IMG/VR virus record: IMGVR_UViG_2648501150_000043 | Span: 1-20,165 of that record | Source: a virus | Taxonomy: Duplodnaviria > Heunggongvirae > Uroviricota > Caudoviricetes | Strand: one strand, 5' to 3' | Length of the DNA: 20,165 nucleotides | Part shown: positions 4,394 through 20,165 of the stretch, one piece after another | How the letters are laid out: each line of letters begins with the position of its first letter | Numbering within the stretch: position 1 is the stretch's first letter | Made by a program: the position numbers and the translations under genes | The notes under the pieces: generated by a model | What the model saw: only the letters and a program-made list of their open reading frames with translations | The model's database searches: none | What the model was told of the DNA's origin: nothing

Positions 4394-4600
4394 TTACTGA
4401 CCAAGCAGCGTTTTACCGCTGGTGTTTGCGGTTGAGGTGTCACCCTGAGCACCAGTCAGCAGAGTGGAACTGCGTCCTGCTGCTGCACGGCGGCGGCGTT
4501 CTTCGTCGTCACGAGAACTGACAACTGCTGCATCCTGCTCCTGTGGCGCAGCCTGTACTTCTGGCGCTGCTGGCACTGATGGCTTGCTGCCGATACACAT
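4394..4600 (-). CDS. Hypothetical small protein (68 aa), Ala/Pro/Arg-rich low complexity
   Basis: ORF ending 14 nt before portal start; GGAG 10 nt upstream of ATG; low-complexity composition makes coding status uncertain. Confidence 0.35.
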   Translation of the reverse strand: MCIGSKPSVPAAPEVQAAPQEQDAAVVSSRDDEERRRRAAAGRSSTLLTGAQGDTSTANTSGKTLLGQ

Positions 4601-4689
4601 AGCAATAGCTCCGTACGCAATTAAATTATTACCAATTTAACCACATATGATTTATTTAGCGTAGGCTATTGACACTTATAACATCAGAT

Positions 4690-4706
4690 ATTACCTTTTA
4701 GGTAAT
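4690..4706. promoter_or_regulatory. Perfect 17-bp palindrome ATTACC-TTTTA-GGTAAT (operator-like site, isolated copy upstream of portal operon)
   Basis: Exact inverted repeat read in sequence; same motif family as the sites flanking the repressor gene; TTGACA at 4670-4675 lies just upstream. Confidence 0.5.
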
Positions 4707-5308
4707 TGATGTTGATGTAACGCAGTTGATGTACGGCATATGGCACATGTGCCGCAGCGGTCCGGATGGGTTCCATTGATGCTACTTCCCCAGCCGGGTA
4801 GCCGGAATGTGCAAGCCAGTGTCAGGTAAGCACGGACAGACGATTCACCATCGTGGCGATACGGTGTGACACCTCGGAAGAGACGAGGATGCAACGATGA
4901 GAGCATTGGGGTGACCGGTTAATCCCATGACGCTAACCGATACAGGCGCAGTGCTCTCAATGTTGTGGTTAATGGCGGGGCTGACCGTCAAACGGTTGAG
5001 AAAAGATAAGCAGGCGAAACGTTCTAAGCGAGCATACGGACTGATCGAACGCGGATGGAACGGGCGGTTACGATATTGAAACACCGCGCCACTGAGCTGG
5101 AGTTCAGCACCAGCCACCACAAACGAATCACGTTAGGACCGTGGTAAACCGTAGTGCCAATGTAATTGCTGTGTGACTTTGTCGGTGCCAGATTCATCCC
5201 GAGTTGCCCCTCGCTGGTACCGACACTTTTTTTACAGCAGAACGCCATTGCGATGACGTTGCGCTGTAAACCCGTAACTGCCATGGAAGGCACCCTTACT
5301 TCCAGTTC
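4707..5308 (+). other. About 600-bp region without ORFs of 60 aa or more on the plus strand, rich in local inverted repeats; candidate long structured leader or ncRNA, ending in intrinsic terminator
   Basis: Six-frame track shows no plus-strand ORF here; the three minus-strand ORFs are in three different frames with implausible composition; region bounded by promoter-like TTGACA (4670) and a strong terminator (5309-5332). Confidence 0.25.
4927..5079 (+). CDS. Possible 50-aa small protein MTLTDTGAVLSMLWLMAGLTVKRLRKDKQAKRSKRAYGLIERGWNGRLRY (hydrophobic N-terminus, strongly basic C-terminus)
   Basis: Found by manual translation (below ORF-track size cut-off); weak RBS (GGGGTG about 13 nt upstream); speculative. 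Confidence 0.2.
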   Translation: MTLTDTGAVLSMLWLMAGLTVKRLRKDKQAKRSKRAYGLIERGWNGRLRY

Positions 5309-5332
5309 GCCCACTTCGGTGGGCATTTTTTT
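5309..5332 (+). terminator. Rho-independent terminator: GCCCAC-TTCG-GTGGGC hairpin followed by ATTTTTTT
   Basis: Perfect 6-bp GC-rich stem with 4-nt loop and 7-T run on plus strand; the reverse strand lacks a T-run, so it is unidirectional. Confidence 0.65.
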
Positions 5333-5343
5333 AAGGTGAGATT

Positions 5344-5775
5344 ATGAGCAAAGACCTGTTTGACATGAAGCGCCTTCCGGTTGACCGGGTTGCTGCGAGA
5401 GTTGTTGGTAAGGGCGTGGATTGGACACCAAACAAAGTTATCCAGACAGGAGACAGCGATCTGCCGTTGCCAGTGTTTTCTGTGTATAACATTAAAAACC
5501 CGCAACAACGGCGAGAAGTGAAAGCAATGATCGGAAGAAAGCGCGGGAGATTGACAATAATTGGCCTTGCTGTCACGCAAGGAGCAAAAAATAAAGGTGC
5601 TCGCTATGTTGCTCGTTGTGTTTGCGGGATTTATACGTATCGCCGAGCAAAAAATTTCAAGAATAATTCCGATGAGTTTGATGGCTGCGAACGATGCAGG
5701 GAGTTGCTGTTTTTGAAACGAGATGAGGTCCATCGCAGAACTGGAAAATGGGTAGAATGGAAAGATTTGATATAA
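5344..5775 (+). CDS. Hypothetical basic protein with C-terminal Cys4 zinc-ribbon (C-x-C ... C-x2-C), 143 aa
   Basis: AAGGTGAG RBS 4 nt before ATG, immediately after a terminator; own terminator downstream; opposite strand to the surrounding late operon; Cys pairs CVCG and CERC about 21 residues apart. Confidence 0.65.
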   Translation: MSKDLFDMKRLPVDRVAARVVGKGVDWTPNKVIQTGDSDLPLPVFSVYNIKNPQQRREVKAMIGRKRGRLTIIGLAVTQGAKNKGARYVARCVCGIYTYRRAKNFKNNSDEFDGCERCRELLFLKRDEVHRRTGKWVEWKDLI

Positions 5776-5778
5776 CGC

Positions 5779-5792
5779 TGTGACATGTCACA
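5779..5792. promoter_or_regulatory. 14-bp perfect palindrome TGTGACATGTCACA
   Basis: Exact palindrome 4 nt after the 143-aa gene stop; a 12-bp copy GTGACATGTCAC recurs at 8296-8307, and GGCACATGTGCC at 4742-4753 shares the ACATGT core. Confidence 0.35.
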
Positions 5793-5795
5793 TTC

Positions 5796-5821
5796 AGCCC
5801 GCCGATGCGCGGGCTTTTTTG
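5796..5821 (+). terminator. Rho-independent terminator: AGCCCGC-CGATGC-GCGGGCT hairpin followed by TTTTTT
   Basis: 7-bp GC stem plus 6-T run on plus strand only. Confidence 0.65.
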
Positions 5822-5862
5822 TATGGCATAATCACTCATTCGATTATCACAGCGAGTGGACC

Positions 5863-6144
5863 ATGAAAATTAAACAAAAAATTGTTAATACCTTTGTGAA
5901 CTCAACCCATGAGTGGAACATGGCCATGCACAATGCCATTGAAAGAAAGGTATTTGAAGGATTTGAAAGCACATTCCCTAATGGATTAAAAGACCCTGCT
6001 GAGACCGGTGAAAGAATAGAGTCAATGCGTGCATTCTATTATCAGCGCATGATGAATACCGCATCACTTTTGCTAACTGGTGCGTCACTAATCATTGCAT
6101 TAGTTGCCTTGGTTGTAGCTCTGATATCAATTCACTATGCATAG
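5863..6144 (+). CDS. Hypothetical small membrane-anchored protein (93 aa) with C-terminal transmembrane helix; the track ORF starts earlier at 5785
   Basis: Hydrophobic stretch SLLLTGASLIIALVALVVALISI at C-terminus; visibly AT-rich codon usage compared with neighbours; 3' end overlaps terL 3' end convergently by 10 bp. Confidence 0.5.
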   Translation: MKIKQKIVNTFVNSTHEWNMAMHNAIERKVFEGFESTFPNGLKDPAETGERIESMRAFYYQRMMNTASLLLTGASLIIALVALVVALISIHYA

Positions 6145-13730: not shown

Positions 13731-13876
13731 CGGTAATTTTTTTCTCGTCATACCTATTGACACAATCACTTTTTGATCTGATTATTACCCAAAAGGTAAT
13801 ACATGAGCGCATCGCTCAGGCAGAAACCACCACTTCGTGGTTTTCCTGCATCTCCAGGTATTACCAAAATGGTAAT
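13731..13876. promoter_or_regulatory. OL-like control region: three perfect ATTACC-N5-GGTAAT sites (13731-13747, 13794-13810, 13860-13876) with a plus-strand promoter (-35 TTGACA 13767-13772, 17-bp spacer, -10 GATTAT 13790-13795) overlapping the middle site
   Basis: Exact palindromes and consensus -35 read from sequence; regular 63-66 bp centre spacing. Confidence 0.6.
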
Positions 13877-13888
13877 AGAGAGGTTCGT

Positions 13889-14038
13889 ATGCAGTGGAAA
13901 GTCATCAATGGTTGGTACTGCGTTACAGCTTGCGGGCTGATGAGCTGGAAGTTCCGCACGCTGGGTGAAGCAATGAACTGGGTATTCGTCAGCAAGCTGG
14001 CGGTAAAAACGGAAATGGATATGGGGGTGAGTAAGTGA
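13889..14038 (+). CDS. Hypothetical small protein (49 aa), first ORF of the leftward early operon
   Basis: ATG at 13889 with AGAGAGG RBS 6 nt upstream, located just after last operator; the longer track ORF (13757) would span the operators and promoter. Confidence 0.4.
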   Translation: MQWKVINGWYCVTACGLMSWKFRTLGEAMNWVFVSKLAVKTEMDMGVSK

Positions 14039-15027
14039 GCGAATTAGCAATTATCGAAATTGCGCCAGATATGGCGCCAAGCATTTACGTAGAAAACGGT
14101 CTGGAAAAGTTCCTCGAACAGATCCGCGAAAGCGTTAACGAAGTTCCGGACCTGAGCACTGCCAAAGGTCGTGCCCGCATTGCATCTCTGGCAGCACAGG
14201 TTTCTCGCAGTAAAACAGCAGTTGAAAAGCCTGGTCGAGATTACCTTCGTCATCTGAAAGAAGCCGTCAAACCTGCTGAGGCTGAACTGCGTCGATTTGT
14301 ATCAGCTTGCGATGAGATGCGCGATGAGGTTCGCCGCCCACTTACCGAATGGGAGGCCGAGCAGGAACGCATCAAGGCTGAAGAAGCCATGAATGTGCTG
14401 CACGCCGAAGCACTGGAGATGAACATCAAGTTCGATCAGGAGCGGGCTGCCAAGTTCGAAGCGGATCACGAGATGGCCCTGCTGATGAACGACGCATTCG
14501 ACCGAGAAGCGAAGGCGAAAGCAGAAGAAGCAGAGCGCCAGCGCATTGCTCATGAAGAAGAGTTGAAGCGCCAGGCGGAAGAAAAGGCCAGGCGTGAAGC
14601 TGAAGAGAAAATAGAGCGTGAACGCGCTGAATCTGCCCGTCGTGAGGCTGAATTAAAGCTCAAGGCAGAGCAAGCAGAGCGTAACCGCATTGCCACAGAG
14701 CAAAAAGCTGAAGCAGAGAAGAAGGAAGCCGCAGATCGTGCCGAGCGCGAAAAACAGGAAGCTATCGCAGTTGAGCAACGCAAAGCGCAGGAAGAAGCCG
14801 ATCGCATCAAGCGTGAAGCTGAAGCGAAAGAAGTAGCCCGTCTGGCGGAAGAGAAGCGCATCGCTGATGAAGCGGCAGCACGCGCTGCTGATGTAGAGCA
14901 CCGTCGTGCCATTAATGCTGCTGCGGTTCAGGCGCTCATTGAACAGGGTATTCCTGATGACTGGGCGAAAGCATGTGTTGTCGCCATCGCTCGCGGGAAA
15001 GTTCCAGCAACAACCATCAACTACTGA
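14035..15027 (+). CDS. Hypothetical protein with long Glu/Arg/Lys/Ala-rich coiled-coil or single-alpha-helix-like central domain (330 aa)
   Basis: GTG start overlapping upstream stop (GTGA); about 200 residues of charged repeats (AEEAERQRIAHEEELKRQAEEKARREAEEK...). Confidence 0.7.
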   Translation: MSELAIIEIAPDMAPSIYVENGLEKFLEQIRESVNEVPDLSTAKGRARIASLAAQVSRSKTAVEKPGRDYLRHLKEAVKPAEAELRRFVSACDEMRDEVRRPLTEWEAEQERIKAEEAMNVLHAEALEMNIKFDQERAAKFEADHEMALLMNDAFDREAKAKAEEAERQRIAHEEELKRQAEEKARREAEEKIERERAESARREAELKLKAEQAERNRIATEQKAEAEKKEAADRAEREKQEAIAVEQRKAQEEADRIKREAEAKEVARLAEEKRIADEAAARAADVEHRRAINAAAVQALIEQGIPDDWAKACVVAIARGKVPATTINY

Positions 15028-17033: not shown

Positions 17034-17076
17034 CCACCACTGCGGCGCCGCGCGCGTCGCAAATGCAAGAGAGGTA

Positions 17077-17328
17077 ATGATGAAAAGAGCATTTGGCAAA
17101 AAGGAACTGATGGCAGTGGTGCCGGTATCGATGAGCACCATTGACCGCATGGAGCGCAATGGCGAGTTCCCGCAGCGCTTCTGGATCACTGATAAACGTT
17201 GTGCATGGAATGCTGAAGAGGTTGAAAACTGGCTTGATGAGCGTCAGGCCACCAGCCCGGCAGAGTTCACCGGAAAAAAGCCGCCGGTTGATCAGCGTGT
17301 TTACCGCCCAGTAAGTAACGCCGCATGA
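17077..17328 (+). CDS. AlpA-family phage regulatory protein / excisionase-like HTH protein (83 aa)
   Basis: MSTIDRMERNGEFPQRFWITDKRCAWNAEEVENWL matches the AlpA/Xis-type HTH pattern (recall). Confidence 0.75.
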   Translation: MMKRAFGKKELMAVVPVSMSTIDRMERNGEFPQRFWITDKRCAWNAEEVENWLDERQATSPAEFTGKKPPVDQRVYRPVSNAA

Positions 17329-17441
17329 CAGCGCTGATCAGGCACTGGGAAAAATGGTCAGGATGGTACTTATTCCTGACCGCCGTTTCCGCCTGGCTGT
17401 ATCTGCTGGCGGTAATTTTCAGAGAAGGCTGGATCCGATGA
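17325..17441 (+). CDS. Putative 38-aa single-pass membrane peptide MTALIRHWEKWSGWYLFLTAVSAWLYLLAVIFREGWIR
   Basis: Manually translated; start overlaps AlpA stop (ATGA at 17325-17328) and stop overlaps next gene start (ATGA at 17438-17441); hydrophobic core of about 19 residues. Confidence 0.35.
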   Translation: MTALIRHWEKWSGWYLFLTAVSAWLYLLAVIFREGWIR

Positions 17442-17737
17442 GCAAATTAACCCGTCTTGAAAAGTATCACCTGAACTATGTGTCTCAGCGTCAGGCTTCA
17501 AAGGTTGTCGCCGTAACTCCTGCGGCGATGGAGGTAGAAAAGCGCGCTGTTGAGCGAGAATCGAAAGGCCAGTTCCGCATTGCAGCCAGGCTTTGGTTGC
17601 TGTGCATGGATGCAGCAGTCGGTGAGGTTGAACGCGCCAGAATAGCGATACGCCGTGATCAGTGCATATCGAGAGGTAACGGCCTGCGCCGAGGCGAATA
17701 TGCAGGGATCGGATGTCGTGGGGTGGTGTATGACTAA
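17438..17737 (+). CDS. Hypothetical protein (99 aa from ATG 17438)
   Basis: ORF in operon context; GAGAAGG upstream; no family recognised. Confidence 0.5.
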   Translation: MSKLTRLEKYHLNYVSQRQASKVVAVTPAAMEVEKRAVERESKGQFRIAARLWLLCMDAAVGEVERARIAIRRDQCISRGNGLRRGEYAGIGCRGVVYD

Positions 17738-17894
17738 CCCTCACGACAATATCCGCGTAGGTAGCATCACGCTGGTTTATTCAGCTCTTCGTTGCGGATG
17801 GATTGTGCCAGGCAGAAAGGTTATCAAAAACCCATTAAAGGCTCAGCGCATTGCTGAGCTGATGAACATTTTCGTGAAAGGCGGTGCAGAATGA
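17730..17894 (+). CDS. Hypothetical small protein (54 aa from ATG 17730; alternative ATG 17700)
   Basis: GGGTGG RBS 4-5 nt upstream of ATG 17730; stop overlaps methyltransferase start (ATGA). Confidence 0.4.
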   Translation: MTNPHDNIRVGSITLVYSALRCGWIVPGRKVIKNPLKAQRIAELMNIFVKGGAE

Positions 17895-18484
17895 CCGGTA
17901 AATACACTCTTATCTACGCAGATCCACCCTGGACATACCGCGACAAAGCAGCCGACGGCGAGCGCGGAGCAGGGTTTAAATACCCGGTGATGAACGTGCT
18001 GGATATCTGCCGCCTGCCAGTGTGGGATCTTGCCGCCGACGATTGCCTACTGGCAATGTGGTGGGTTCCTACTCAGCCGGTTGAGGCGTTGAAAGTGGTC
18101 GAATCGTGGGGCTTCAAGCTGATGACCATGAAGGGATTCACCTGGCACAAGACGAATAAGCACAAAGGTAACAGCGCGATCGGCATGGGCCACATGACAA
18201 GGGCGAACAGCGAAGACTGCCTGTTTGCGGTGCGTGGGAAACTACCGGCCCGCATGGATGCGTCAATCTGCCAGCACGTCACGGCGCCGCGCATGGAAAA
18301 CTCGCGCAAGCCTGACATCATCCGCGAAAAACTGGTGCAGTTGCTGGGCGATGTTCCGCGCATTGAGCTATTCGCCCGCCAGTCGTCACATGGTTTCGAC
18401 GTATGGGGCAATCAGTGCGAAGGCCCGTCGGTGCAGTTGCTACCAGGCTGCTCTGTTCCGGTTGTAAGGACGGAGGCAGCATGA
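17891..18484 (+). CDS. MT-A70-family N6-adenine DNA methyltransferase (197 aa), no cognate restriction gene seen
   Basis: DPPW catalytic motif at residues 11-14 (YADPPWTY) and overall size typical of phage MT-A70/Dam-like methyltransferases. Confidence 0.85.
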   Translation: MTGKYTLIYADPPWTYRDKAADGERGAGFKYPVMNVLDICRLPVWDLAADDCLLAMWWVPTQPVEALKVVESWGFKLMTMKGFTWHKTNKHKGNSAIGMGHMTRANSEDCLFAVRGKLPARMDASICQHVTAPRMENSRKPDIIREKLVQLLGDVPRIELFARQSSHGFDVWGNQCEGPSVQLLPGCSVPVVRTEAA

Positions 18485-18657
18485 CCATGTTCAATGAGGC
18501 GGAGTTAATCCGCCAACTGGAAGAGCAGCGCGCTGTGATTGTTCAGCGCGACGATGAAATTAACCGGTTACGCGGTGATGTTGAGATGCTAACAGCGGCA
18601 CTTAATAACTCTGCGCCATCAACATCTAATATTTGCGGGAAGGAACGAACAGTATGA
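18481..18657 (+). CDS. Hypothetical small protein (58 aa from ATG 18481)
   Basis: ATG overlaps methyltransferase stop; coiled-coil-like composition. Confidence 0.45.
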   Translation: MTMFNEAELIRQLEEQRAVIVQRDDEINRLRGDVEMLTAALNNSAPSTSNICGKERTV

Positions 18658-18908
18658 GCACGGTGACCATGCAAATGAAAAAAGTCTGGTTTTCTCCTTC
18701 TCGCGGTCGACATTTTTTGACGCGCAGGGCAGCGGTAAGAGCGGAGGCGCATGCAAAAATATTGGCTAAATATCCGATTGAGAAACCATATTACGAACAT
18801 GGCGGACTTTGCGATCCAGGATTCTCTATTGAGTTCGATGAACCAGATCGATACAAAAAAATGCTCAGACGCATGATGCGGCTAATCGATAAGAATACGG
18901 AGAAATAA
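18654..18908 (+). CDS. Hypothetical protein (84 aa from ATG 18654)
   Basis: ATG overlaps upstream stop; last gene before the convergent integrase. Confidence 0.5.
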   Translation: MSTVTMQMKKVWFSPSRGRHFLTRRAAVRAEAHAKILAKYPIEKPYYEHGGLCDPGFSIEFDEPDRYKKMLRRMMRLIDKNTEK

Positions 18909-18911
18909 ATA

Positions 18912-20165
18912 TCAACCAATCCCTTCCATCCACTTCTCAAACTTCGACGGGGAGAACGGCACCAGATCGGTGTGATCCCCGTTAATCCAGGCATCGACCA
19001 TATCTGCCCACTGCTGCAACATGTAGGCACGTTGCCGGGCATACTCCGCTTTGTTGTATACCGCTCGCACTCCCTTCTGTTCATGCGCCAGCGCCTTTTC
19101 AATCCAGTCAGATGGATAACCAGCCTCATGCAACAGTGTGCTGGCAGTGCGGCGCAGGTCGTGCACAGAGAAGTCATCCAGATGCCCGCCAGCCTCATTC
19201 ACCGATTCGACAGTGACATTGATCAGCCTGTTCAGTGCGGCGTTGGATAATGGCTTGCTCACTGAGTAGCGCCCAGGCAAAAGGTATTCACTTCCACCGG
19301 CACACATCTGCAGGCCAATCATCAGATCCTGCGCCTGTTTTGGCAGATAGATAACGTGCGCCCGACTTCCCTTCATGCGGTCTGAAGGTATGGTCCATGT
19401 CCATTTTTTGAAATCAACCTCTGACCATGTGGCATGGGTGAATTCACTTTTTCGGACCAGGGTAAGAAGAACCAGTTTTAATGCCAGTTTCATCGTGGCC
19501 ATAGTCCCGACGTGATCCAGAGCGCGGAAGAATACACCGATCTCTTCAGGCTGTAGCGTACGGTCGCGCGGCTTAAACATGGCTATCGATGAAGGCTTGA
19601 TGTCAGCAGCCGGATTAAACAGGCCGTGCCCGCGGTCATTCGCATAACGGTATACGCTGCTGATTATTTCTCTGGCCTGCACCGCCGTCGCCCGGCCGCC
19701 ACGTTCAACAATGCGATCGCACAGGTCACGAACCATGCCAGTGGTTATCTCAGCCATCATCTTGTTACCCAGAACCGGCATGATATCGCGTTCGATAACG
19801 GCCTGTTTCATTGCCCGGGTACTGTCAGCCAGAATGACGTGTTTCATATAGCTGTCGGTATGTACCGAGAATGTCTCAGCGCCACGGATCTTTTTGATAC
19901 CGTCACGTTTTGCCGCAGCTGGCGACTGGCCTGCCTTTAACAGCTTTTTTGCAGCAATTAGTTCTTCACGCGCTTCCGCCAGACTGATACCGTCACGACC
20001 ATACTGACCGATGACCAGCGTTTCCCGTCGCCCGTTAATGCGGTAGTCGTACCGGAACGAGACAGAGCCGGAAGTAAGCACGGCTACATACAAGCCGTCA
20101 CGATCCGAAACCTTATACAGTTTGTCCTGCGGTTTGAGGTTTTTTAATTTTGTATCAGTAAGCAC
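18912..20165 (-). CDS. int: Tyrosine integrase (site-specific recombinase, P4-like N-terminal arm-binding domain), at least 417 aa; N-terminus at or just beyond the right window edge
   Basis: N-terminal LTDTKLKNLKPQDKLYKVSDRDGLYVAVLTSGSVSFRYDYR pattern and C-terminal HDLRRTAST...LAH...Y catalytic region; GTG codon at the very last window codon. Confidence 0.9.
   Translation of the reverse strand: MLTDTKLKNLKPQDKLYKVSDRDGLYVAVLTSGSVSFRYDYRINGRRETLVIGQYGRDGISLAEAREELIAAKKLLKAGQSPAAAKRDGIKKIRGAETFSVHTDSYMKHVILADSTRAMKQAVIERDIMPVLGNKMMAEITTGMVRDLCDRIVERGGRATAVQAREIISSVYRYANDRGHGLFNPAADIKPSSIAMFKPRDRTLQPEEIGVFFRALDHVGTMATMKLALKLVLLTLVRKSEFTHATWSEVDFKKWTWTIPSDRMKGSRAHVIYLPKQAQDLMIGLQMCAGGSEYLLPGRYSVSKPLSNAALNRLINVTVESVNEAGGHLDDFSVHDLRRTASTLLHEAGYPSDWIEKALAHEQKGVRAVYNKAEYARQRAYMLQQWADMVDAWINGDHTDLVPFSPSKFEKWMEGIG

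Follow-up and report, generated by a model that had tools for sequence, protein, structure and literature searches.

A conserved module of small early genes with an orphan MT-A70 methyltransferase in an epsilon15-like prophage

Temperate phages of the epsilon15 type (Uetakevirus) carry a run of small genes between RecT and a convergent P4-type integrase, annotated as gp33 to gp29 in epsilon15 and as SPN1S_0037 to SPN1S_0031 in SPN1S. In lambda and the Stx phages, the exo-xis region likewise consists of small early genes that are non-essential and lie between the genes for recombination and int/xis. The exo-xis genes belong to the early pL genes (PMC8614690) and deletions of one of them, orf60a, alter lysogenisation and induction (PMC6213356). 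Stx phages also hold an MT-A70 methyltransferase gene in this region, and two such prophage enzymes have been studied. M.EcoGV of E. coli O104:H4 methylates GATC when overexpressed, with GATC as its listed specificity (PMC6602927). M.EcoPA8orf6770P of phiPA8 acts on DNA near background level in vitro, forms a 1:1 complex with the protein PNB-2 that prefers 16S rRNA, a preference given without a mapped modified base, and controls spontaneous induction together with PNB-2, raising its rate; shorter C-terminal variants that occur without PNB-2 are described in the same study (PMC10810198). Here, we compared a seven-gene region of one prophage with these systems.

Prophage setting and the seven-gene region

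The window, i.e., the whole stretch of DNA analysed here, comprises 20,165 nucleotides (IMG/VR record IMGVR_UViG_2648501150_000043). Its DNA matched epsilon15, SPN1S and further Uetakevirus genomes at 88-92%, with an identical annotated gene order, and matched the prophage located at guaA in E2348/69 at 96%. Judged from these comparisons, the window is an epsilon15-like (Uetakevirus) prophage integrated next to guaA, with Salmonella enterica as the probable host. The attachment region falls outside the window. guaA was found directly past int in loci L087, L088 and L003, and the attachment site adjoins guaA as seen in an identical contig. PHROG, Pfam and PADLOC scans assigned the rest of the window to head, portal, terminase, replication, repressor and RecE/RecT genes, and a generic HNH endonuclease was found beside DUF551 and resolvase genes. 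The features of the region are as follows.

17034-17076, plus strand: intergenic spacer between RecT and AlpA, containing a GC-rich hairpin and, for AlpA, the ribosome-binding site AGAGAGG
17077-17328, plus strand: AlpA-family winged-helix protein, 83 aa (Pfam Phage_AlpA, PF05930, 25.6 bits against a gathering score of 21)
17325-17441, plus strand: single-pass membrane peptide, 38 aa (phrog_17484 'membrane protein', 1.2e-28)
17438-17737, plus strand: PerC-like small basic protein, 99 aa (phrog_868 'transcriptional activator', 2.2e-55, full length)
17730-17894, plus strand: DUF1317 protein, 54 aa (Pfam DUF1317, 77 bits, 8.8e-22)
17891-18484, plus strand: orphan MT-A70 N6-adenine methyltransferase (beta-class, DPPW), 197 aa (Pfam MT-A70, PF05063)
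18481-18657, plus strand: acidic coiled-coil protein (orf6), 58 aa (phrog_4701, residues 1-31 only)
18654-18908, plus strand: basic protein (orf7), 84 aa (phrog_21496, 9e-21)
18912-20165, minus strand: P4-type tyrosine integrase (Pfam Arm-DNA-bind_3, Phage_int_M and Phage_integrase), convergent with the cluster

The seven plus-strand open reading frames and their tight coupling, as described in the initial annotation, were confirmed by the coordinates and junctions: five junctions are ATGA start/stop overlaps, PerC and DUF1317 share an 8-nt overlap (ATGACTAA), and the orf7 stop lies 3 nt from that of the convergent integrase gene. Measured against distinct homologues in 90 related loci, pN/pS ranged from 0.09 to 0.34 for all seven frames, which are real genes under purifying selection. 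The statement that only two of them belong to recognisable families was wrong, since Pfam recognises four (AlpA, PerC as a borderline case, DUF1317 and MT-A70) and PHROG all seven.

The Uetakevirus early-left synteny RecT-AlpA-gp32-gp31-gp30-MT-A70-int is present in the window at high identity, and we place the seven genes on this basis in the distal third of an early-left operon belonging to an epsilon15-like temperate phage. Their location at the integrase-proximal end of this operon, as first proposed, was borne out, the genes following RecE/RecT and meeting the convergent integrase. Order and orientation are those of epsilon15 and SPN1S. Identity to the proteins of these two phages was 100% for the 38-aa peptide, 97% for the PerC-like protein, 94-98% for MT-A70 and 76% for AlpA. 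The window differs from both phages by an empty slot, another orf6 C-terminus and the rare orf7. In epsilon15, a 60-aa membrane protein annotated as 'transacetylase repressor' replaces orf6 and orf7; in SPN1S, DUF1317 and MT-A70 are separated by a DndB/DGQHR gene, and orf7 is absent.

No promoter-like sites were found within the cluster, and its terminator-like matches were limited to two weak 5-bp stems, fewer than in shuffled sequence, which fits a single polycistronic unit. In and near the cluster, internal promoters, terminators, repeats, Rfam families and tRNAs did not rise above chance. A promoter-like site was located at 13757-13785, downstream of the repressor gene. The hairpin of the RecT-AlpA spacer (-13.6 kcal/mol) was no better than shuffled sequence (z = 0.47) and is not followed by a T-run; the epsilon15 annotation has a 'transcriptional pausing' stem-loop at the equivalent site.

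Lineage core, variable slots and the lambda exo-xis comparison

Gene presence and order were compared over the 90 related loci. A fixed order emerged: AlpA, the 38-aa membrane peptide, PerC-like, DUF1317, a variable slot, MT-A70, a coiled-coil protein of about 60 aa, rare extras and the integrase. Since AlpA, the 38-aa peptide, PerC-like, DUF1317 and MT-A70 kept their order in 75-89 of the 90 loci, these five of the seven genes are the lineage core, and variable cargo in the window is confined to the orf6 C-terminus and orf7. The region had been described as an accessory hotspot; this stands for the two variable slots that flank MT-A70 in relatives and fails for the five core genes. The first slot, between DUF1317 and MT-A70, is the main cargo site and is empty in the window. 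In relatives, the slot beside MT-A70 carries ASCH, DndB/DGQHR, PAPS-reductase-like, PD-(D/E)XK or another SAM methyltransferase gene, and in some of them DUF1382 (lambda Orf63). The second holds the mosaic orf6 C-terminus and the rare orf7 in the window. Conservation of the small genes in related phages, a point on which the initial annotation had staked its proposal, held for the lineage core, with the orf6 C-terminus and orf7 (7/90) as the exceptions. The gene set is already annotated in epsilon15, SPN1S, EPEC E2348/69 and many IMG/VR prophage loci and is a routine module.

The DUF1317 protein was 67% identical to lambda Orf60a over 46 aa (E = 3e-24), and on this similarity we regard it as an Orf60a homologue of the exo-xis type. 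It is the one representative in the window of the five conserved lambda exo-xis genes, orf63 occurring in relatives only. BLASTP of the seven frames against the lambda exo-xis proteins returned no homologues of orf61, orf73, ea22 or ea8.5, and we accordingly rejected the presence of the conserved block orf60a-orf63-orf61-orf73-ea22, of which the orf60a homologue alone was found. The order of the window also departs from that of lambda: its Xis-like gene is proximal instead of adjacent to int, its int is convergent and not co-directional, and it additionally encodes a PerC-like protein and a membrane peptide. Overall, the region can be read as the counterpart of the lambda exo-xis region, by position and partly by homology, the correspondence being mostly positional. 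DUF1317 is missing from seven related loci, in which PerC abuts the methyltransferase gene.

The 38-aa peptide is the counterpart of epsilon15 gp32 and is hydrophobic by its GRAVY value (+0.55). Its pN/pS was 0.24 in its own frame and rose to 1.25 and 1.50 when the two alternative frames were read. The PerC-like protein (pN/pS 0.26) is the counterpart of gp31, a 'transcriptional activator', and copies from E. coli with 96% identity bear the RefSeq name 'PerC family transcriptional regulator'. It shares the central PerC motif region (residues 34-79) with PerC/Pch of EPEC and EHEC; unlike these, it scores just below the Pfam threshold (PF06069, 21.7 bits against a gathering score of 22.6) and belongs to a narrow, phage-specific subfamily, for which 1.8 billion proteins yielded 34 representatives at 50% identity. 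An exhaustive search for PerC-like fusions and distant relatives gave these 34 representatives and no informative architectures. The protein was also found in Salmonella and Klebsiella prophages, where the LEE target of PerC is not expected, and its native role is probably directed at the phage.

For orf6 (pI 4.7, pN/pS 0.34), the N-terminal 22-35 aa are conserved and the C-terminus is mosaic and differs from that in SPN1S and E2348/69. Translational coupling links the gene to the methyltransferase, and a match to its N-terminus was present in 74/90 loci, usually starting at the MT-A70 stop. As for orf7, its DNA had no match in 5,426 complete E. coli genomes, and 12 homologue clusters were recovered from 5.8 billion proteins. 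A P22-like Salmonella phage and a phage of Yersinia carry homologues in their early-left operons, a distribution that marks orf7 as a rare, mobile early-operon gene. Homology searches, proposed earlier for the small proteins together with structure prediction, gave PHROG families for all of them; the orf7 model (AlphaFold2, pLDDT 80) had no fold match. A toxin-antitoxin or defence role for orf6, orf7 or the other small frames was considered and rejected, as none had a significant PADLOC match (the sole match was AlpA to mad1, E = 0.006) and orf7 homologues occur in plain early operons.

The AlpA-like protein and its integrase partner

The AlpA-like protein, counterpart of epsilon15 gp33, was present in 80/90 related loci (pN/pS 0.22). 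It matched PDB entry 8c3t, an 'AlpA family phage regulatory protein' (4.4e-11), on which a literature search gave nothing usable, and phrog_66, 'excisionase and transcriptional regulator' (2.8e-15), which PHROG places under 'integration and excision'. As with the AlpA, TorI and Vis excisionases, a Phage_AlpA domain above the Pfam threshold is accompanied by an Arm-DNA-bind_3 integrase on the same element. Unlike these systems, the gene of the window lies five genes from int and is transcribed towards it.

Known AlpA proteins also act on transcription: that of CP4-57 activates integrase expression and that of P. aeruginosa is an antiterminator. Together with the position of the gene at the proximal end of the block, and with AlpA alleles (identity classes of 100%, 76-79% and 71-73%) that assort freely with integrase alleles and show no strict co-variation, this would speak for a protein that is chiefly a regulator, either an int activator or an antiterminator, with directionality of excision coming from another source. 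We consider this unlikely, because the protein is the only Xis-like one detected in the window, the usual partners of P4-type integrases are directionality factors of the AlpA/Vis/TorI type, and the best PHROG match falls in the excision category. The pairing with a P4-type integrase favours a role as excisionase (recombination directionality factor), which we regard as probable, possibly combined with a regulatory one. The initial preference for a regulator over an excisionase was overstated, given a sole candidate directionality factor in the window, its integrase partner and a phrog_66 annotation that carries both labels.

The orphan MT-A70 methyltransferase and its possible role

The methyltransferase matched the whole Pfam MT-A70 profile (positions 1-172 of 172; 89.7 bits against a gathering score of 23.9, 2.8e-25) and the PADLOC model MTase_II (6e-76). 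Catalytic motif IV, YADPPW at residues 9-14 (DPPW at 11-14), is nearly or fully invariant among 34 homologues, and a pN/pS of 0.09 is the strongest constraint in the cluster. The protein consists of little beyond the catalytic core. Among solved structures, it comes closest to Tetrahymena MTA1 (1.8e-13) and METTL3, and an AlphaFold2 model built with the 34 homologues was too poor for a fold search (pLDDT 57.5). Over residues 1-186, it shares 73% identity with the Stx-phage enzyme M.EcoPA8orf6770P/M.EcoGV, from which it diverges in the loop at residues ~85-100 and by a shorter, unrelated C-terminal tail. GATC specificity and rRNA preference are thus at most putative for the enzyme of the window. 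The genes for M.EcoPA8orf6770P-PNB-2 in phiPA8 and M.EcoGV in O104:H4 are likewise prophage genes near the integrase end, translationally coupled to a small upstream frame. In locus L005, the gp7/gp6 terminator is exactly the one that was published for phiPA8, which links its homologue to the published experiments (PMC10810198). Literature on a Uetakevirus methyltransferase yielded nothing usable.

That the methyltransferase is an orphan was upheld: the PHROG, Pfam and PADLOC scans revealed no nuclease in the 20 kb besides the generic HNH endonuclease and RecE, and no restriction partner was detected among the unannotated frames of the window. A recognisable type II restriction-modification system was rejected, the neighbours being the 54-aa DUF1317 and 58-aa coiled-coil proteins, with no detectable restriction enzyme; a novel nuclease could escape these scans. 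An orphan enzyme could shield phage DNA from host restriction, as first proposed, within a cluster that would mainly be an anti-defence island. Phage orphan methyltransferases are established as counter-restriction devices (PMC4738411), and this one, an adenine methyltransferase with a DPPW motif, matches PADLOC type II MTase models, has no nuclease partner found in the window, travels into unrelated phage backbones (four loci at ~91% identity) and neighbours a slot that holds nucleic-acid-modification or modification-sensing genes in relatives. However, its closest studied relatives, 73% identical, point elsewhere: their listed target is GATC, already methylated by Dam (PMC6602927), or their DNA activity in vitro is near background (PMC10810198). 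An enzyme with the GATC specificity of M.EcoGV would duplicate host Dam methylation. Moreover, the window shows neither avoidance nor enrichment of GATC, whose O/E of 0.78 is in the middle of the range for 4-mer palindromes; the 197-aa protein has no recognisable target-recognition domain; and its gene is an early one, located distally in a long operon. We consider protection from restriction rather unlikely; a regulatory role, exerted on induction frequency as the closest studied relatives suggest, is more likely.

The substrate of such a regulator of induction frequency could be RNA, e.g., 16S rRNA, with orf6, the Orf60a-like or the PerC-like protein, all encoded nearby, as a lineage-specific partner. 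The 73% identity to the phiPA8-type enzyme (PMC10810198) points this way, as does the second subunit typically needed by MT-A70 enzymes (PMC10810198, PMC7544214). A small upstream frame (DUF1317, PerC-like, PNB-2 or a 94-aa frame) is translationally coupled to the gene in all its genomic contexts, a downstream frame of ~60 aa is usually coupled to it as well, and database proteins fuse PerC to MT-A70 (P0052, P0046) or MT-A70 to orf6 (P0014, phage SPNIS2). These fusions are, however, rare, each being known from 1-3 sequences, and may have arisen as artefacts of indels where genes overlap. The window, translated in six frames, contained no match to PNB-2, located at 2648-3004 of L005 via the published terminator (best E = 8.6), and none to the 94-aa upstream frame of other MT-A70 contexts. 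No candidate partner is universal, as epsilon15 is devoid of orf6 and several relatives of DUF1317, and the phiPA8 study itself describes the shorter variants that lack PNB-2 (PMC10810198). Taken together, we hold an RNA methyltransferase of this kind to be improbable.

We favour, as the probable explanation, an early-left distal module of an epsilon15-like prophage whose small genes tune induction and whose MT-A70 enzyme is regulatory. Upon induction or infection, the block would be transcribed in full from the early-left promoter into a single mRNA. The AlpA-like protein would serve the integrase as excisionase and may also regulate, and the Orf60a-like, PerC-like and other small proteins would tune the lysis-lysogeny or induction decision in the manner of the lambda and Stx-phage exo-xis genes. 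MT-A70 would belong to the M.EcoGV/M.EcoPA8orf6770P lineage and be active on its own as an adenine-N6 methyltransferase, regulating induction frequency via methylation of GATC-type DNA or of RNA. Functions beyond family assignment stay putative because they are transferred from lambdoid phages.

A further, speculative proposal, which we see as quite doubtful, makes MT-A70 the catalytic subunit of a small heteromeric methyltransferase of RNA/rRNA or regulatory DNA, in which a lineage-specific partner replaces PNB-2, the activity sets induction frequency and the cargo slot supplies readers or effectors of the mark. If true, it would give the exo-xis small proteins and the phage PerC-like proteins a biochemical role. 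With its empty slot and without PNB-2, the window is a clean minimal case of a widespread prophage MT-A70 enzyme whose substrate is disputed between GATC DNA and 16S rRNA. This lineage could show whether MT-A70 enzymes regulate induction, and whether their small neighbours, including the Orf60a homologue, are their cofactors.

Gene layout, transcription and genomic context of the cluster

The cluster and the convergent integrase gene are arranged as follows.

17077-17328, plus strand, AlpA-like ORF, 83 aa
17325-17441, plus strand, membrane peptide ORF, 38 aa
17438-17737, plus strand, PerC-like ORF, 99 aa
17730-17894, plus strand, DUF1317 ORF, 54 aa
17891-18484, plus strand, MT-A70 ORF, 197 aa
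18481-18657, plus strand, orf6 (coiled-coil protein), 58 aa
18654-18908, plus strand, orf7, 84 aa
18912-20165, minus strand, integrase gene, convergent with the cluster

These coordinates bear out the initial annotation, which described seven plus-strand ORFs mostly coupled by ATGA: this overlap was observed at five junctions, and that between the PerC-like and DUF1317 ORFs is an 8-nt overlap of another type. We observed no promoter-like site within the cluster, the two terminator-like matches were weak 5-bp stems, fewer than in shuffled sequence, and the nearest plus-strand promoter-like site lies at 13757-13785, directly after the repressor gene. Therefore, the cluster fits a single long early-left transcript. 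A GC-rich hairpin in the RecT-AlpA spacer had no T-run, and its stability did not exceed that of shuffled sequence. Since the stops of orf7 and of the integrase gene are 3 nt apart and no terminator was found between them (18906-18914), early-left transcription should continue antisense into int. In SPN1S, the last early-operon gene and the integrase gene overlap by 4 nt instead of being separated by such a gap, and in epsilon15, RNase III sites are annotated at the equivalent of the orf7/integrase junction.

The DNA of the region is 88-92% identical to epsilon15, SPN1S and other Uetakevirus genomes and 96% identical to the EPEC E2348/69 prophage, and the deposited annotations of these relatives have an identical gene order from RecT to the convergent integrase. 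The cluster belongs to the early-left module of the epsilon15 type. In contigs identical to the window, guaA is found directly beyond the integrase, and the closest orf7 cluster carries a Salmonella enterica name. Elsewhere, the window holds head, protease, portal/adaptor, terminase, replication, resolvase, repressor and RecE/RecT genes. The stretch of about 1.7 kb separating the portal/adaptor gene from the large terminase gene (4400-6140), partly of low GC (0.43 at 5501-6000), looks like a moron or an insertion within the packaging module. Two plus-strand ORFs there, at 5344-5775 (143 aa) and 5785-6144 (119 aa), had no significant family match, the latter reaching only a Hol_Tox match below threshold, close to its C-terminus. 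In the early part of the early-left operon, where AT and GC skew are strong, a 330-aa ORF (14035-15027) belongs to phrog_1376 (unknown function) and had no match in Pfam, PADLOC or PDB. It is apparently absent at this position from epsilon15 and SPN1S, whereas the E2348/69 prophage has a related 319-aa ORF.

Small ORFs, core genes and variable slots

Recognisable families had initially been assigned to only two of the ORFs, which was wrong. Pfam matches were obtained for Phage_AlpA (over threshold), PerC (sub-threshold at 21.7 bits, the gathering score being 22.6), DUF1317 (77 bits) and MT-A70 (89.7 bits, complete domain covered), and all seven ORFs matched a PHROG family. The 38-aa peptide belongs to phrog_17484 ('membrane protein'), the PerC-like protein matches phrog_868 ('transcriptional activator') over its full length, and both orf7 and orf6, the latter by its N-terminal 31 residues only, match families of unknown function. 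The DUF1317 protein is 67% identical to phage lambda Orf60a over 46 residues. Separately, 15 stretches of a 1,693-aa database protein (P0135) match PerC-like residues 10-63 at 24% identity; this is either a protein made of repeats or an artefact of low complexity.

The cluster was compared with 90 related loci, namely 80 IMG/VR loci retrieved via the methyltransferase, four contigs with the exact orf7 protein and six annotated records. Aggregate pN/pS was lowest for MT-A70 (0.09), the most strongly constrained gene of the cluster, followed by orf7 (0.19), AlpA (0.22), PerC-like (0.26), DUF1317 (0.29), the 38-aa ORF (0.31) and orf6 (0.34). The 38-aa ORF overlaps a potential upstream extension of the PerC-like ORF; pN/pS there was 0.24 in its own frame, compared to 1.25 in the extension frame and 1.50 in the third frame, and therefore the peptide gene is real and the PerC-like ORF starts at 17438. 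On these sequence comparisons, all seven small ORFs are genuine genes.

MT-A70 was present in 89 of the 90 loci, having served as search bait, AlpA in 80 and the orf6-type N-terminus in 74. The peptide gene was present in 78/90, the PerC-like gene in 81/90 and the DUF1317 gene in 75/90; orf7 was present in only 7/90. Recombination hotspots were found at two junctions, slot A (DUF1317 to MT-A70) and slot B (MT-A70 to int). In the window, as in 39 loci, slot A is empty (≤27 bp); other loci carry there an ASCH-like 254-aa protein (21 loci), DUF1382, the lambda Orf63 family (11 loci), a PDDEXK_5-like 170-aa protein (six loci), DndB/DGQHR (three loci), an MmcB-like nuclease-fold protein (two loci), a PAPS-reductase-like protein or a small SAM methyltransferase (one locus each) and, in further loci, proteins of unknown family. 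This cargo is varied and tied to nucleic-acid modification (L067 4052-4816, L011 3937-5004, L063 4493-5005, L076 4135-5004, L085 4150-5004 and L064 4522-5004), and ASCH genes in operons with N6-adenine methyltransferases have been noted earlier (PMC4738411). Slot B typically holds one coiled-coil gene of about 60 aa, with the first 22-35 residues kept and a variable C-terminus; orf6 departs from the SPN1S and E2348/69 versions past residue 22, and orf7 comes next. A further cargo variant of slot B was seen in one locus (L033 5591-6361), where a 256-aa ORF with no Pfam match separates MT-A70 from the orf6-type gene. The proposed accessory hotspot thus applies to slots A and B, but most of the cluster, five genes out of seven, is lineage core, and the window's main slot carries no cargo.

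The product of orf7 is basic (84 aa, pI 9.9). A search of 5.8 billion proteins gave only 12 clusters of homologues, and none of 5,426 complete E. coli genomes had a DNA match to it. A P22-like Salmonella phage and a Yersinia phage carry homologues in their early-left operons, and Pseudomonas phages have more distant ones. The AlphaFold2 model (pLDDT 80) shows two helices plus a hairpin and had no significant structural neighbour. The gene orf7 behaves as a mobile early gene.

The AlpA-like protein is the sole Xis-like candidate within the window, which it shares with a P4-type (Arm-DNA-bind_3) integrase, and this favours a role as excisionase. It matches PDB 8c3t, 'AlpA family phage regulatory protein' (4e-11), and its family, phrog_66, is labelled 'excisionase and transcriptional regulator'. 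Strict co-variation of AlpA and integrase alleles was absent among the relatives.

The MT-A70 methyltransferase

The enzyme (METHYLTRANSFERASE) is essentially a catalytic core alone (197 aa), with DPPW at residues 11-14. Its nearest solved structures are the catalytic subunits of ciliate MTA1 and human METTL3, which both function within heteromers (PMC7544214). As initially described, it has no restriction partner: PHROG, Pfam, PADLOC and PDB sequence searches revealed no restriction endonuclease candidate in the window, which makes it an orphan within the reach of such searches.

Its closest characterised relatives, from Stx phages, are 73% identical over residues 1-186, and divergence from the Stx-phage enzyme is greatest in the loop at about 85-100 and in the C-terminal tail. 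In phage P13803 (L005), the exact published phiPA8 terminator sequence lies upstream of the Stx-type methyltransferase gene; therefore, ORF08 of this locus is PNB-2 and ORF07 the orthologue of M.EcoPA8orf6770P. Alone, M.EcoPA8orf6770P shows non-specific, near-background activity on DNA and RNA (Gong et al., PMC10810198). With its partner PNB-2 it forms a 1:1 complex that prefers 16S rRNA and 30S subunits, and it increases spontaneous prophage induction (PMC10810198). No PNB-2 homologue was found in the window. M.EcoGV, 'highly similar' to M.EcoPA8orf6770P, is listed as GATC-specific (PMC6602927). GATC methylation would be redundant with host Dam methylation. The divergent loop and tail, the lack of a PNB-2 homologue and the ordinary frequency of GATC in the window (O/E 0.78) call for caution when these findings are applied to the window's enzyme.

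The small upstream ORF to which MT-A70 is translationally coupled changes with the genomic context: it is DUF1317 in the window, a PerC-like ORF in phage TP9 and in L088, PNB-2 in the Stx phages, and in L049, L053 and L066 an ORF of 94 aa beside SSB. The gene is also found, at about 91% amino-acid identity, in unrelated phage backbones without AlpA, PerC and int genes (L049, L053, L066 (4717-5594), L085 (4150-5594)), where the 94-aa ORF beside SSB, or a PAPS-reductase-like gene, is coupled to it. The methyltransferase gene moves independently, as its own module. In rare database proteins, PerC is fused to MT-A70 (P0052, 297 aa; P0046, 263 aa), and in P0014 (270 aa, phage VB_ST_SPNIS2) MT-A70 is fused to the orf6-type coiled coil; the locus L093 3456-4268 is listed with them. 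These fusions weakly hint at a partnership of MT-A70, and could equally be annotation errors or indels where genes overlap. We consider it unlikely that MT-A70, instead of protecting DNA, regulates induction as an RNA or regulatory methyltransferase dependent on a partner.

Comparison with the lambda/Stx exo-xis region

Position and the Orf60a homologue (in relatives, Orf63 too) liken the cluster to the lambda/Stx exo-xis region, but exo-xis orf61, orf73 and ea22 have no counterparts in it. The cluster would therefore work like the exo-xis region, but is not a copy of it. The exo-xis genes are early and non-essential, and modulate lysogenisation and induction (PMC6213356, PMC8614690). Of the first interpretation, the hotspots and the orphan methyltransferase stand, but not an accessory character of the cluster as a whole. 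The cluster is real but ordinary, a further example of a prophage module that is already known and widespread, in which the substrate and partner of the prophage MT-A70 lineage are the point of greatest interest.
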